Positions 36,079-43,373 are shown, counted from the first letter of the stretch. The stretch is DNA of 64,000 nt from an uncultured Candidatus Rokubacteria bacterium (GCA_963762145.1 CAVXJS010000019.1:224001-288000), one strand, 5' to 3'. Numbers and translations are program-made. The notes: generated by a model not told the origin, from the letters alone.

Positions 36079-37143
36079 CTAGGCGGTCGCCGCCACCGAG
36101 TAGATCGGAACGGCCTCGCGCCGGGTCTTGATCTGGGTGGGCCCGAGGGCCTCGACGTCGAATCCGTTGCCGAGGCCGCTCCGGGTGTTCTCGTCGATGA
36201 GGATGGGCCGGCCGAGCACCTTGGTGTGAGCCTCCAGATGCGCGGCGAGGTTCACCGCGTCTCCCACGCCGGTGTAGGTCATGCGCTGCTGGGTTCCGGT
36301 GAAGCCGGCGATCAGAGGCCCGGAGGCGATGCCGATGCCGATTCGAACCTCGACCGCGCCGCGGCGCGCGCGATCCTGGTTGAAGGCGTCCATCATCTCG
36401 AGCATCTCGAGGGCGGCGCGTACCGCGCGGGTGCGGTGGTCCGTCAGCGGAAGCGGCGCGCCGAAGATCGCCATGAGGCCGTCTCCGAGCATCTGGTTGA
36501 CGATCCCGCCGTGCCCCGCGATCGCGTCGAAGGTGAGGGTGTAGTAGCTGTTGAGGAGCTCGATGGTCTCGGCGGGCGGCAGGGTCTCGGTGAGGCTCGT
36601 GTACGAGCGGATGTCCGAGAACATGACGCTGGCCTCGACCTGCTTGTATCGGCCGTCGAGAGAGCCGCCCGCGGTCAGCACCTCGTCGGCCACCTCGGCG
36701 GTGGCGAACTTCCGGAACAGCTCGCGCTGGAGGTCCCGCAGCCGCTTCTTCTCCAAGCTCGCCGCCACGCGGGCTCGGAGCAGCACCGGATTGACCGGCT
36801 TGAAGAGGTAGTCCTCGGCGCCCATCTCGATGCAGCGCGCGACGCTGTCGACCTCCTCGACCGAGGACATCATGACGACCGGGACGTCCCGCAGGCGCGG
36901 GTCGGCGGCGAGCGCGGCCAGGGTCTGGTAGCCGTCCATCTCGGGCATCTCGATATCGAGCAGGATCAGGTCCGCGCGCCGCTGGCCGAGCGCCTCCAGC
37001 GCCTGGCGCCCGTTCTCGGCGAACGCGACGGTGTGTCCGAGCTGCTCGAGGGCGCGTCCCAGCAGGAGCCGGTTGACCCGGTTGTCGTCGACGACCAGGA
37101 GGCTGCCCGCCGCGGTGCTAGTCGGTGTACTCACGTCGGACAT
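36079..37143 (-). CDS. Receiver-domain class III nucleotide cyclase
   Basis: REC (LVVDD, LLDIEMP, KP); FSDIRSYT, LGDG, GDAVNLAAHLE. Confidence 0.9.
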   Translation of the reverse strand: MSDVSTPTSTAAGSLLVVDDNRVNRLLLGRALEQLGHTVAFAENGRQALEALGQRRADLILLDIEMPEMDGYQTLAALAADPRLRDVPVVMMSSVEEVDSVARCIEMGAEDYLFKPVNPVLLRARVAASLEKKRLRDLQRELFRKFATAEVADEVLTAGGSLDGRYKQVEASVMFSDIRSYTSLTETLPPAETIELLNSYYTLTFDAIAGHGGIVNQMLGDGLMAIFGAPLPLTDHRTRAVRAALEMLEMMDAFNQDRARRGAVEVRIGIGIASGPLIAGFTGTQQRMTYTGVGDAVNLAAHLEAHTKVLGRPILIDENTRSGLGNGFDVEALGPTQIKTRREAVPIYSVAATA

Positions 37144-40100
37144 CTCCCAGCGCGTGTGCCACGCGCTCGTTCAAGTTCGCGAGCTGCTCGACCCGGTCGC
37201 CGGCCTCGTGCAGGTCTCCGGCCTGACCCAGGAGCTCGAGCTCGCGGGCGAGCGCGGCGAGCCCGCCGGCGCCCAGGCTCTCGCTGGTGGACTTCAGCGA
37301 GTGGGCGGCCCGGCGGAAGCCGTCCCGGTCCGTCCGCCCGAGGGCGGCGCGGAGTGCGGTCACCAGGTCCCGGGCGTCGGCGATGAAGGTGTCGATCAGC
37401 TCGACGACGAACGCGCGATCCATGGTGCCCCCGAGCCGCTCGATCACCGCACGGTCCACCACGCTCGCGGCCGGCGTGGCCGCCCCGCGCCGCGGGCTGC
37501 GGCCCAGGGCGGCCACCAGCTCCTCGACACGGATCGGCTTCGCGACGTAGTCGTCCATGCCCGCCGCGGTGCACAGCTCGCGGTCGCCCGGCATGGCGTT
37601 GGCGGTCATGGCCACCAGGCGCGGCCGGCGCTCCCCGGGCCAGCGCCGGTTGATCTCGCGGGAGGCCTCGAAGCCGTCGAGCTCCGGCATCTGCACGTCC
37701 ATGAGGACCACGTCGTAGGTCTGCCGGCCGACCGCGTCGATGGCCTCGAGGCCGTTGGCGGCCAGATCGGCCCGGTAACCCATCTGGCCCAGGATGCGAA
37801 GGGCGACCTTCTGGTTGACCACGTTGTCCTCGGCCACGAGGATGCGCAGCGGGTGCCGGCGGGCCATGTCGGGGTCGAGGTCGGTCTGCCCCATCCGCCG
37901 CTGCGGCACGTGGACCGGCTGCTCGGCAAGGACGGAGACGATGGCGTCGAAGAGCTGGGAGGGCTTGATGGGCTTGTTGAGATACGCGGCGAAGCCGGCC
38001 TCCTCCGCGCGCGCCTCGCGGCGGCCCAGCGAGGTGAAGAGGATCAGCGGCAAGGCCGTCCCGGCCGGTTGCTCGCGGATGGCCCGCGCCAGCGCCACGC
38101 CGTCCATCTCCGGCATGTGCATGTCCAGGACGCCGGCGTCGAAGCGCTCGCCGTCCCGGATCCAGCCGAGCGCCTCGGCCGGCGATTCGGTGGCGCGCGC
38201 CCGCATCCCCCAGGTGTCGAGGTGCGAGACGAGGATGCGCCGGTTGGTGGCGTTGTCGTCCACCACCAGGATGCGCTTGTCGTGTAGCGACGGCTGCACG
38301 CCGCTCAGGTCGCGCCGGACGGGGACCGGCGACTCGGCGGCGGGAACTTGGATGGTGAAGCGGAAGTCACTGCCCCCGCCGACCTCGCTGGTGACGCTGA
38401 TCCGACCGCCCATCAGCTCGGTCAGGCGCTGGCTGATCGCCAGCCCGAGCCCGGTGCCGCCGTAGCGGCGGGTGGTGGAGGCGTCGACCTGGCTGAAGGA
38501 CTGGAACAGGCGGCCGAGGCGGTCGGACGGGATGCCGATGCCGGTGTCGCGGACCGAGAAGGTCAGCTCCCACAGGCCGGCGTCGCGATGCGCGGTCACC
38601 GAGAGCACGATCTCGCCGCGCTCGGTGAACTTGACCGCGTTGGAGAGCAGGTTGAGCAGGATCTGGCGCAGGCGCGTGACGTCGCCGACGACCGCGCCGG
38701 GGGTCCCGTCGCCGAAGAGATACGCGAGGTCGAGGTTCTTCTCGGCGGCCCGGCTCGCCACCAGGTCCAGCGCGGACTCGACGCACTCGCGGAGGTCGAA
38801 CGGCTGGGCCTCGAGCTCGAGCCGGCCCGCCTCGATCTTGGAGAAGTCGAGGATGTCGTTGATCACGGTGAGGAGCGCGTCGCCGCTCTGCCGCACGATC
38901 TCCGCGTACTCGCGCTGCTCGTCGGTCAGCGCGGTGTTGAGGAGCAGCCCGCTCATGCCGATCACCGCGTTCATCGGGGTGCGGATCTCGTGGCTCATGG
39001 TGGCCAGGAAGGCGCTCTTGGCCTCGTTGGCCGCCTCCGCCTCCCGCCGGGCCAGGAGGAGCTCGGTGATGTCGTGGTAGATCCCGATCATGCCCATCCG
39101 GGTGCCGTCCACGACCACCGGCATGGACGAGATCTCGACGTCCACGATGCTGCCGTCCTTGCGGGCGCGCCGGCCGATCGCGCGGATCCATTCCCCGTCG
39201 AGGGTCTGGCGGATGTTGGCGCGCACCTCTTCCCGCTTTCCCGGGGCGGCCACCAGGTCCTCCATGCGGCGCCCGAGCGCCTCCGCCGGGGTATGACCGA
39301 AGAGGCGCTCGGCGCCGGGATTCCAGCCCGCCACGGTGCCCTGCAGATCCATCGTGACGATGGCCACCGGGCTGGTCTCGACGAGAGCCTCGGAGTACTG
39401 CTTCTGTCGGTGGATCTCGCGGAACAGCTCCGCGTTGTGGATGGCCAGTCCCGACTGGGTCGCGAAGGTCTGGAGCATGGCCACGACCTCGGGCGAGAAC
39501 GCGCCGCGCTCGCGCCGCAGGATGACGAGGCCGCCCAGCAGGCGGTCTTCCCGCACCAGCGGCACCGCGAGGAGCGAGCGCAGCCCCTGCTGGATGAGGA
39601 GGCGCTGGACCTGGGGGGCGACGAGGCGGGCCGCGGCCTCGACGTCCGCGACCTCCACGGGGGCCCGCTCGACCCCCGCCCGCCCGATTGCGCCCTCGCC
39701 GAGCCGGATCGGCGCGGCGCGCACCGCCTCCAGGAACGCGGACGGGATCTGGTGGGCGACGCGGGCGTGGAAGCTCTGGCTCGATTCGTCGAACTCGTAG
39801 ACGATACCGCCGGCGCTGCCGGAGAGCTCGACCGCGCGGCTGACGATGGTGGCCAGCACGGTCTCGAGGTCCAGCGTGGAGCTGACCGCGCGGCTCACCT
39901 CGCCGAGCGCCTGGAGCTCGCTGACCGAGTGGGTGAGCTGGCCCGTCCGGGCTTCCAGCTCCTTGAAGAGGCGGACGTTCTCGATCGCGATCACCGCCTG
40001 GTCGGCGAAGGTCTGCATCAGGCTGATCTGCCGGTCGCCGAAGCCGCGTGCCTCGGCGCGCCAGCACGCGATGACCCCGACCACGGTGTCGTCCCGCAGC

Positions 40101-42171
40101 ATCGGGACGGCGAGGAACGAGCGGTACCCGCCCGCCCGCTGGGTCGCCGCGCGGAGCGGATTGGCCGGCAGCGAGAGCACGTCGTCCACGTGGATGACCC
40201 GGCGCTCGAGGACCGCCTGGCCGATGGCCACCTCGGGCCCCGGCCGATAGGGGAAGAAGTCCACCCAGGCCTGGAGGATCTGCTCGCGGCCGGGGCCGTG
40301 GACCGACCCCTGGTGGAGCATCTCGCCGTCGAAGCGCAGCAGCGCGCCCGCGAACGCCTCGCACAGGCGGACCGCGCTCTCCACGATGGCGTCGAAAACC
40401 GGCTCCACGTCGGTGGGCGAGCTCGAGATCACGCGGAGGATCTCGCCGGTCGCGGTCTGCTGCTCCAGCGTCTCGGTCAGGTCGCGGTTGCGGCCGTCGA
40501 GCTCGGTGAAGAGGCGCACGTTCTCGATCGCGATGACGGCCTGGTCCGCGAAGGTCTTGAGGAGCTCGATCTGGCGGTCGGAGAAGTGCCCCACCTGCGA
40601 CCGTCCGACTGCGATCGCCCCGATCGGGCGGCCCTCCCGGATCATCGGGACCGCGACGATGCTGCGAAAGGTGACGACGCGCGCGACCGGGCCGAGGGTG
40701 AAGTCGGGATCTGCGTCGATGTCGGGGATGTGGGCGACGATGCCGTCGAGGATCGACCGCCCCGCGGCGCTACCGCGATTCGGCGGAGCGGAGAAGGCGC
40801 GGCGTACGGCCTCCGTCGCTTCGGTGGTGTGACCATGGCCGGCCACGAAGTGGAGCAGCTCGCCGTCGAACCGAAAGACCTGGCAGACGGTCCCCTCGCA
40901 CAGGCGGGCCGCGCTCTGAGCGATCGTGTCGAACACGGGCTGAGCGTCGGTGGGCGAGCTGGAGATGACCCGCAGGATCTCGCCGGTGGCGGTCTGCTGC
41001 TCGAGGGTCTCGGTCAGCTCGCGGTTGCGGGCCTGGACCTCGGTGAACAGGCGCACGTTCTGGATCGCGATGACCGCCTGCGCCGCGAAGGTCTTGAGCA
41101 GCTCGATCTGGGTCTCGGTGAAAGGACGCGGGGTGGTCCATCGGTGGACGACGATGGCCCCGACCGGAGCGCCCTCGTGGAGGATCGGAACACACAGGAC
41201 ACTCCGGAGTCCGACCCGGCGCAGCGAGTCGAGATCGAAGGTGGGGTCGTCGAGCACATCGGGGACGTGGGCGGCATTGCCGGTCAGGATCGCGCGGCCG
41301 GCCACACTGCCCAGCGTCGCCTCCATCGGGTAGATCTGGCGAAGGACCGCGCCGCCTTCCGAGCTCGTGTTGTCCAGGGACCGGAGGTTGATCAGCCGGC
41401 CGTCGTAGGTGAACACCGCGCCGGAGTCGGCGTTGCACAGACGCCGCGCGTTGCCGGCGATCGTGTCGAAGACGGGCTGGACGTCGGTGGGCGAGCTCGA
41501 GATGACGCCCAGGATCTCGCCGGTCGCGGTCCGCTGCTCGAGAGTCTCGGTCAGCTCGCGGTTGCGGGACTCGAGCTCGGTGAAGAGGCGGACGTTCTCG
41601 ATCGCGATGACCGCCTGGTCGGCGAAGGTCTGCACGAGCGCGATCTGGGCTGCGGTGAAGGGGCGGACCTGGCGACGGCCACAGCCGATCACGCCGATCG
41701 GCACCCGGTTGCGGAGGATCGGGATGGCCAGGAACGTCCGGTAGGGCGCCGCACGCTGGAGCACCTGCAGGGTGTGCGGATCGTAGGCGGGATCCTCCAG
41801 CACGTCCTCGCAATGGACCGCCCGGCCCTCCACGAACGCGCGGCCCATGATGAACCCGCGGTGCGCCGGTCGGGGAAGAGGCTCTGGTAGGCTCGGGTCT
41901 CCGCGGGGGACATGTTGTTGATCGCGGTCAGGTGAAGCAGGCCGTCATCATCGAGCCGCGCCACCGCGCTGAATCCGGCCTCGCACAGCCGCGCCGCGCT
42001 GGTCACGATCGCGTCGAACACGGGCTGGACGTCGTCCGGCGAGCTGGAGATGACCCGCAGGATCTCGGCGGTCGCCGCCTGCTGCTCGAGCGCCTCGGCC
42101 AGGCGCCCGGCCGAGCCGCCGGTCGAGGGGGCTCGACGGGTGGAGGAGGCACCGCGCCGGGCGGGCTTCAC
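37118..42171 (-). CDS. Hybrid histidine kinase: 5xGAF-PAS-HisKA-HATPase-2xREC-HPt, with a frameshift at about 41872
   Basis: Repeated [20 protein letters not shown] / [48 protein letters not shown]. ORFs 41689-42171 and 37118-41848 join if one C is added. Confidence 0.9.
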
Positions 42172-42319
42172 CGCGGCGGCCTTGATCTTCCTTGATTTCG
42201 CCTTCCGGGGGATAGCCCTCTCCTTGCGCGAGTGGCCGGCGCCCTGGAGCGGGCCGGGGACCGGACGACAGGCTAAGCGAAGGGGCCCCGCAGAGCAAGC
42301 CCGGTCGAGGCGCTGCCGG

Positions 42320-42832
42320 TCAGGCCTCCGCGCCGGTCTGGGTGTGGCTCCGGAAGGTCACGGTCTCGTCCCCGATCCGCACCCGGGCGTCCCAGGTGAT
42401 GTCGATGGCCCCCTGCACGCTCTGGTGGGCCGGGCAGCCTTGCGGGTGCAGCGCCAGCGCCCGCTCGGTCGCGTCCCGGCTCTCGGCGGGCACCGCGAGC
42501 TCGTAATGGACGTGGATGGACCTGATGCGGATGGTCTTGCCGACCCCGACGATGCGGCCTTCCACGGTGGCGACATAGCCGTCACGGTCGAACGCGATCT
42601 TGCGCCCTGCCAGGGCGCCGCGCAGCGTGCCGTACATTCAGCCGGCGACGGCCGCGACGATGTGGTCGAGGGTGGAGGCGACCGGCGGCCCTTCCGCGAC
42701 GCCGTAGTACTCGCGGAGCTTGCCCTGCACGCCGTAGACCACCGGAGCGGGGACCTCGCCCAGGTAGGCGTGGCGGTAGCCGTGCCGGTTCTCGAGACGG
42801 GCCTGAGAGATGTATTCGAAGTCGTCGGGCAT
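42320..42832 (-). CDS. OsmC/Ohr-like protein with in-frame UGA (probable selenocysteine)
   Basis: ORFs 42638-42832 and 42320-42637 abut in the same frame: DHIVAAVAG-UGA-MYGTL...HPQGCPAHQSV. The UGA falls at the first conserved OsmC Cys. Confidence 0.8.
42602..42618 (-). promoter_or_regulatory. Candidate bacterial SECIS hairpin
   Basis: mRNA GCGCCCU-GGC-AGGGCGC; the loop begins with G at position +27 after the UGA. Confidence 0.65.
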
Positions 42833-42947
42833 GAAAGCCTCCTCGGGTTGTTTGGACGTGGCCGGGGGCGGCCGCGGTCAAACTCTAGCATCCGGCCGCC
42901 TTGAGCTGCGCGCGGAACGTGGTTAGCATGCGTCGCGGAGGGGCGCG

Positions 42948-43373
42948 ATGTCGGCAGAAGACAACAAGGCACTGGTGCGTCGGATCCTGGCGGAAGTGCG
43001 CGACGGGTGGACCCAGGCGGTCATCGACCAGTTCTTCGCGCCGGACTACCGCCGCCATCTCACGCCGACCGGCCCACACCTCACTCGCGAAGAGCAGCGG
43101 GAACGGGCCTCGAGACTGCGGGTTGCGTTTCCGGACGCCGAGGCCACGCTGGACGACATGCTCGCCGAGAGGGACCGCGTGGCATATCGGCTCACCATTC
43201 GCGGAACCCATCAGGGCTCCTTCCTCGGCGTGGCCCCAACCGGCCGTCGCGTGACGGTCTCGTTTTTCGCGATCGTCCGCGTCGAGAATGGCAGGCTCGC
43301 CGAGGAGTGGGGCGGCCTCGACCAGGTGGACCTGCTCCGGCAACTCCGAGAGCCGAGCGAGCCGTCCCGCTGA
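42948..43373 (+). CDS. SnoaL-like ester cyclase (NTF2 fold)
   Basis: AEDNKALVRR, AFPD, GTHQG.FLGVAPTGR, LAEEW. Confidence 0.88.
   Translation: MSAEDNKALVRRILAEVRDGWTQAVIDQFFAPDYRRHLTPTGPHLTREEQRERASRLRVAFPDAEATLDDMLAERDRVAYRLTIRGTHQGSFLGVAPTGRRVTVSFFAIVRVENGRLAEEWGGLDQVDLLRQLREPSEPSR

Follow-up and report, generated by a model that had tools for sequence, protein, structure and literature searches.

A gene on the minus strand of the analysed window (42832-42320) is, with high probability, a single gene for a 170-residue thiol/selenol peroxidase-type protein of the OsmC/Ohr fold, in which the UGA at codon 65 is decoded as selenocysteine (Sec). The window is a stretch of 64,000 nucleotides from an uncultured Candidatus Rokubacteria bacterium (GCA_963762145.1, CAVXJS010000019.1:224001-288000). 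The gene begins with an ATG (42832-42830) that follows a Shine-Dalgarno-like GAGGAGG (42844-42838) at a distance of 5 nt, both read directly from the sequence, and it ends after 170 codons with a TGA (42322-42320). An earlier note on this DNA had described one reading frame broken by a single TGA at 42638-42640. This was confirmed on the minus strand, where the TGA is codon 65, and the read-through product of 170 residues (...STLDHIVAAVAG-U-MYGTL...HPQGCPAHQSV...) was identical to the one given there. With translation table 11, the frame is divided into ORFs of 64 aa (42832-42638) and 105 aa (42637-42320). The note had also expected annotation pipelines to call two fragments, and the public databases contained just such pieces. 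Most of the 120 listed matches among public gene calls were C-terminal pieces of 99-108 aa, named 'OsmC family protein' and starting at the Met after the UGA, and N-terminal stubs ending at residue 64 were present as well. The assignment of the gene draws on its reading frame, a Pfam match, an AlphaFold2 model and Foldseek searches; that of codon 65 (42640-42638) as Sec at the peroxidatic cysteine position draws on the conserved TGA column, homologues with Cys and alignment with Ohr/OsmC proteins.

A six-frame search (E <= 1e-10) of the window's phylum, represented by 251 genomes, detected the gene in 162. Four genomes marked as unpublished are counted here, and the loci extracted for further analysis were taken from other genomes. 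Among the matches listed, every match spanning codon 65 contained a TGA, and the three listed matches lacking one covered only residues 90-166, 99-162 and 98-163. Fifty loci were extracted from the phylum, the 30 closest with 74-99% identity and 20 distant ones, from other families of the phylum, with 39-47%. All 50 (39-99% identity) had a TGA in the same column, and the residues on both sides of it were conserved (..TLDHxVAAVAG-U-M.GTL..). The TGA was also present in 80/80 metagenome loci from a scan seeded with the JGI protein P0004, 76 of them by pattern and four by inspection, and in 80/80 loci from a collection of species-representative genomes, which overlaps the set of 251 phylum genomes; neither the relatives nor the sets are independent of one another. 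In the loci examined, TAA and TAG were never seen in the column of codon 65, while the terminal stop varied between TAG, TGA and TAA among orthologues. The terminal TGA of the window gene is a true stop and has no SECIS-type context. Besides the UGA for Sec, an orthologue from the same genus (L030, G154:C84) had a TAG in frame at codon 110, which is otherwise always Tyr. The cause is either a nonsense mutation of recent date or a fault in the assembly of this metagenome-assembled genome (MAG).

A core hairpin of the bacterial SECIS (bSECIS) type was located at 42618-42602 on the minus strand (GCGCCCU-GGC-AGGGCGC, -12.0 kcal/mol). Its 7-bp stem begins 20 nt and its loop (GGC, 42611-42609) 26 nt after the UGA, and the stem GCGCCCU/AGGGCGC with a G-initiated loop had been placed and described correctly in the earlier note. 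According to the sections of a 2026 review that deal with it, the bSECIS consensus comprises 3-9 nt in the loop, 4-16 bp in the stem, a G among the first two nucleotides of the loop, a distance of 16-37 nt from the UGA and a minimum free energy of <= -7.5 kcal/mol (PMC13188914). The hairpin of the window gene conforms to this model. On its own, it is mildly unusual and constitutes weak evidence. Among synonymous-codon permutations of the gene (n = 300), 5.7% equalled or beat the SECIS-type hairpin of -12.0 kcal/mol and 20% passed the model. At control in-frame positions of the family (n = 7183), 12% passed the model and 1.9% reached -12 kcal/mol. The hairpin of the distant locus L068 was no better than its own permutations. 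The folding energy of the whole region was tried as evidence and dropped in favour of the consensus model, permutations and synonymous sites, since the 76-nt fold gave z = 0.2 against dinucleotide shuffles in this G+C-rich DNA, and energy alone was uninformative. Because the hairpin of the single sequence is weak evidence, the case for a selenoprotein rests on the relatives, and the significance of the hairpin comes from comparative data.

The strongest single result was a freeze of the synonymous sites over the hairpin. In the 30 close relatives, codon entropy averaged 0.09 at the hairpin codons 72-77 and 0.91 at the remaining 85 conserved degenerate codons, and codons 72-77 formed the six-codon stretch with the lowest entropy in the gene. 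Within the hairpin, GCA was fixed in 29/29 and GGG in 30/30 sequences, and the sole variants (GGC>GGT and CGC>CGT) changed G-C into G-U pairs. The hairpin is thus under selection. Pairing was assessed in 69 distinct sequences, obtained from 107 sequences of the close clade and the metagenome relatives, with three metagenome loci missed by the pattern left out. The partners were paired in 99.4% of 483 cells, versus 28-62% when the partner was slid. The changes in these sequences consisted of 28 replacements of C-G by U-G and one double change from C-G to A-U, which occurred in two sequences; covariation within the close clade is thin. Across the phylum, hairpins passing the bSECIS model were present in 50/50 loci and took four or more distinct sequence forms, and the expectation that both the UGA and the hairpin would be conserved in relatives was borne out. 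The close clade had the form GCGCCCU-GGC-AGGGCGC. Loci L054 and L073 had GCGCGCU-GGU/GGA-(A/G)GCGCGC, with a compensatory swap of C:G to G:C, and L072 had UUGGCCAG-GCUC-CUGGCCAA. In most of the distant members, the hairpin (CGCUAGC-loop-GCUAGCG) was located 8-9 nt closer to the UGA and was built on CUA Leu codons.

The genome containing the window is a draft of 25 contigs totalling 6.26 Mb, with 88% completeness and 5.4% contamination. A search for Sec machinery, proposed in the earlier note, retrieved selA, selB, selC and selD, all with matches above the curated cut-offs. The genes for SelA (577 bits), SelB (363 bits) and tRNA-Sec (69 bits, anticodon TCA) were located within 5 kb on contig 9, and selD (341 bits) was located on contig 11 (L010, G000:C11:419505-420437). 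The latter contains one in-frame TGA, and the selenophosphate synthetase that it encodes probably contains Sec; C14 carries another selD-like gene, which lacks a TGA. Within the phylum, selA was detected in 215 of the 251 genomes and in 94 of the 104 high-quality ones. The window's genome also encodes other OsmC-fold proteins with an in-frame TGA in the column of U65. One (L074, G000:C14:639223-639654) is a member of the NCBIfam family NF041052 (152.5 bits) with the motif A-F-U-L-M-T, and another (L077, G000:C9:407643-407975) scored only 34 bits and has G-A-U-R-I-N. Including the window gene, at least three OsmC-fold genes in this genome have UGA at the reactive cysteine, and two further OsmC paralogues (L075 and L076) have Cys.

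An exhaustive search of representative proteins yielded 408 matches (E <= 0.001), many of which were fragments starting at residue 66 or ending at residue 64, an annotation artefact. Thirty full-length homologues with 30-76% identity were aligned. Cys, the residue that the earlier note had proposed to look for at the UGA position, was found in 28 of the 30. The remaining two had Ser (P0248, which also lacks the second Cys) and W (P0172). Only one Cys form had more than 60% identity, a metagenome protein of 162 aa (P0003). The earlier note had named Trp, Arg or a variable residue at this site as evidence against its own reading; Cys is the dominant residue. The W printed in two JGI proteins (P0004 and P0006) was considered as an indication that homologues have Trp and was rejected, as the contigs of P0004 itself (L078 and L079, 99% identity) carry TGA at this position.

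These observations also bear on the rival that survives best, although it is very unlikely, namely that UGA is read as Trp, Gly or Cys without selenium, through an altered code or near-cognate read-through. The W that some databases print at the site (P0004, P0006 and P0172) would fit such a reading. The W proteins, however, reflect TGA in the DNA: the translation that gives W in the JGI proteins also runs past the terminal TGA, and the W of P0172 is probably a TGA read as Trp. Moreover, TGA truly terminates the window gene and several of its orthologues, homologues have Cys rather than Trp or Gly at the site, and a full set of Sec machinery as well as a SECIS-type hairpin is present.

The Pfam OsmC domain (PF02566) was matched by residues 56-147 with 41.5 bits, compared with a gathering threshold of 27.5, and the match spans the UGA. 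An AlphaFold2 model based on a 26-sequence alignment had a mean pLDDT of 87 and a pTM of 0.80. The Foldseek matches shown were all chains of the OsmC/Ohr family or uncharacterised structural-genomics chains, among them 1lql (E = 3e-8), OhrB (6ebc), Ta0195 (2onf, TM 0.80 by target) and E. coli OsmC (1nye). The protein is accordingly modelled with the fold of the OsmC/Ohr hydroperoxide reductases, which it shares with OsmC of E. coli (1qwi/1nye) and T. thermophilus (1ukk), Ohr of P. aeruginosa (1n2f) and OhrB of C. violaceum (6ebc); Foldseek E values for the set overall were 3e-8 to 1e-5. Identity to any solved structure was 12-21%.

Two redox residues could be aligned with those of OsmC/Ohr proteins. 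U65 and C133 aligned by sequence with the first and second Cys of the Ohr proteins 1n2f and 4noz (E = 0.003), and by profile with both Cys of T. thermophilus OsmC (1ukk, E = 3.4e-6) and E. coli OsmC (1qwi, E = 1.2e-4). In Ohr and OsmC, these two cysteines are the peroxidatic and the resolving residue. C133 is encoded by the TGC at 42436-42434 on the minus strand and is part of a C-P motif; both it and position 65 were invariant in alignment A2. The two residues have the same positions as in OsmC/Ohr, about 68 residues apart, and the window protein differs in having Sec in place of the peroxidatic Cys. The description of the gene as encoding an OsmC-like protein with UGA at the catalytic Cys and a second Cys in CP therefore agrees with the fold and with both aligned cysteines. 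In Ohr/OsmC proteins, the peroxidatic Cys is activated by a catalytic Arg, situated in the N-terminal region, and a Glu. The N-terminal 55 residues of the window protein were outside all sequence alignments, so that the catalytic Arg and Glu were left unaligned; R20 and D56, both invariant in A2, could be the activating Arg and the acidic residue. Because the catalytic Arg and Glu could not be aligned, a peroxidase activity is proposed by analogy.

The possibility that the region consists of two small genes, encoding 64 aa and 105 aa and meeting at a UGA-AUG stop-restart junction, has even less probability than that of an ordinary amino acid at the UGA. The sequence TGAATG, with UGA directly before AUG, is a typical coupling junction, and the pieces of 99-108 aa and the N-terminal pieces ending at residue 64 in the public calls would be expected from such an arrangement. 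The break would, however, fall inside the OsmC domain, exactly at the column of the catalytic Cys and midway along a predicted helix (residues 54-76). Homologues with Cys are single polypeptides that have C-M or C-L at the junction, and L073 has CUC (Leu) after the UGA and thus no start codon. No Shine-Dalgarno-like motif was found ahead of the ATG at 42637, the start used by pipelines for the 105-aa fragment, when the sequence was read directly. In the loci examined, the internal stop is exclusively TGA whereas the terminal one varies. Two genes would also leave the frozen synonymous sites over the hairpin unexplained. Least probable of all, to the point of being negligible, is a pseudogene or assembly error in an ordinary Cys-OsmC gene, for which a single nonsense mutation or miscalled base (TGC/TGT to TGA) in a draft assembly of this completeness and contamination would suffice, but which is contradicted by the recurrence of the TGA in all the relatives examined, which represent two phyla and many separate assemblies, and by strong amino-acid conservation without frameshifts on either side of it.

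For a single gene with Sec at codon 65, we infer the following course of Sec insertion and of the peroxidase chemistry, with its substrate and reductant. SelB, carrying GTP and Sec-tRNASec, would bind the hairpin at 42618-42602, which lies inside the coding sequence with its loop 26 nt past the UGA, and Sec would be delivered to the UGA in the A site in place of release factor 2. Sec65 would then stand where the long central helix starts, at the site of the peroxidatic cysteine, and the resolving residue would be Cys133 of the C-P motif. By analogy with OsmC/Ohr, the selenolate of Sec65 may be oxidised to a selenenic acid as it converts a hydroperoxide into the alcohol. The latter would form a selenenylsulfide with Cys133, which a dithiol donor would reduce again, likewise by analogy with OsmC/Ohr.

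Selenoproteins of the OsmC-like kind have been on record since 2005, and what is new here is a subfamily that escapes both curated models and gene callers. In the part of the 2005 Sargasso Sea survey by Zhang, Fomenko and Gladyshev that describes it, an OsmC-like selenoprotein family is assigned to COG1765 and given the motif UxxT (PMC1088965), and the 2026 review, in the corresponding section, lists an OsmC-like selenoprotein under PF02566, again with UxxT (PMC13188914). The selenoprotein reading of the earlier note was therefore supported, whereas its word 'hidden' is somewhat too strong, as OsmC-like selenoproteins had already been published (PMC1088965). As described there, the Sargasso Sea family resembles the window protein in its OsmC fold, in the UGA-encoded Sec at the redox cysteine with a bacterial SECIS element just downstream, and in the prediction of a thiol-dependent redox protein. 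The two differ in the motif, which is U-M-Y-G-T (UxxxT) in the window protein and U-M-T-G-T in the distant clade, so that the UxxT of the published description is not matched. They differ also in about 55 additional N-terminal residues outside the Pfam domain in the window subfamily, and in origin, marine plankton in the Sargasso Sea family and soil Methylomirabilota/Rokubacteria and Chloroflexota in the window subfamily.

A curated model exists for a related family, NF041052 (OsmC_like_Se, 'OsmC-related (seleno)protein'), which belongs to the same superfamily and has Sec in the same alignment column. The window protein scored 17.2 bits (E = 0.0038) on this model, below its cut-off of 95, and the window gene was not among the four matches obtained when NF041052 was run over the genome. 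The NF041052 member of the same genome (L074) has U-L-M-T, unlike the window gene. The window protein represents a different subfamily that is missed by the curated model, and consequently NCBI records carry only the fragment of about 100 aa. In the literature on OsmC-like selenoproteins, on selenoproteins of Methylomirabilota and Rokubacteria and on selenoproteomes of groundwater MAGs, we found no paper on this subfamily, though the lists of Deng et al., whom the 2026 review cites for a selenoprotein-rich MAG of Methylomirabilota, may contain the gene.

By record title, 80 genome loci comprised 39 from Methylomirabilota/Rokubacteria, 34 from Chloroflexota and seven with other labels. The Chloroflexota loci were mostly from Ktedonobacteria and had about 70% identity to the window gene, with the TGA and the hairpin GYGCCCU-GUC-AGGGCGC. 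The complete genome of 'Ktedonobacteria bacterium brp13' (AP024096.1) contained two near-identical copies (L200 and L206) about 20 kb apart, and it also contained selA and tRNA-Sec. In a quick maximum-likelihood tree of 86 rows, from which the partial matches L219, L236 and L237 were left out, 33 Chloroflexota rows were separated from 45 Rokubacteria-type rows (SH-aLRT 99), and the window gene was grouped with MAGs of Methylomirabilota. Some genomes of the phylum, for example the one with G070:C92 and G070:C111, contained both a close (about 79%) and a distant (about 42%) form, each with UGA. The presence of both forms in one genome implies that the two clades are, at least in part, paralogues with differently placed SECIS hairpins. 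Several contigs with other labels also carried the gene: those of L158, L162, L163, L166 and L231 were labelled as Deferrimicrobiaceae, Acidoferrum, Nitrosotalea (an archaeon) and Verrucomicrobiia. The copies of L158, L162, L163 and L166 were 83-91% and that of L231 was 73% identical to the window gene, and they were nested inside the Rokubacteria clade. These are likely mis-binned contigs or mislabelled MAGs.

Tentatively, the distribution suggests a distinct, uncurated subfamily of Sec-OsmC proteins in which Sec is near-obligatory, and which may have been transferred horizontally, ready to be decoded, between two unrelated Sec-competent soil phyla; we regard this broader reading as possible, and hold it with less than even confidence. 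Sec appears near-obligatory because every DNA locus examined has TGA and P0003 is the sole Cys form above 60% identity. Horizontal transfer is implied by about 70% identity, together with the built-in SECIS hairpin, across Methylomirabilota/Rokubacteria and Chloroflexota/Ktedonobacteria. We claim neither a donor nor a direction of transfer, because the base of the ingroup was without resolution and the outgroup branch was long (2.7).

Through its annotation as fragments, a whole subfamily of selenoproteins from soil bacteria is absent from protein databases and from counts of selenoproteomes. Where the 2026 review treats Methylomirabilota, the phylum is described as selenoprotein-rich, with one MAG in which 63 genes for selenoproteins are predicted (PMC13188914). 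Within such a phylum, the window gene adds one more peroxidase-type protein with Sec for Cys and opens no new mechanism. If strain brp13 is in culture, it would allow direct tests of whether UGA is read as Sec and of what an OsmC-type peroxidase gains from Sec rather than Cys.

The stretch or a part of it was detected in 20 sequencing runs from 13 studies, mostly labelled as soil metagenomes. In six RNA runs, the share of the stretch was small (0.04-0.09), which by itself is no evidence of expression. A scan of positions 41800-43000 detected no promoter-like site, and a terminator scan of the same interval detected a single terminator-like site, which lies on the opposite strand and is no more than chance would give. 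The neighbours of the gene encode a SnoaL-like protein, a DUF2064 protein and a large GAF histidine kinase. In 30 loci with flanks of about 1.5 kb, these neighbours were kept in only a few close relatives (SnoaL in three, DUF2064 in ten and the kinase in four), and no conserved gene for a redox partner was seen. Just downstream of the gene, the translation of an ORF of 1576 aa (37118-41848, minus strand) contained many repeats of a GAF-like type and, beyond them, histidine-kinase and receiver-like regions. A sequence like the N-terminus of this ORF adjoins the gene in three other loci.
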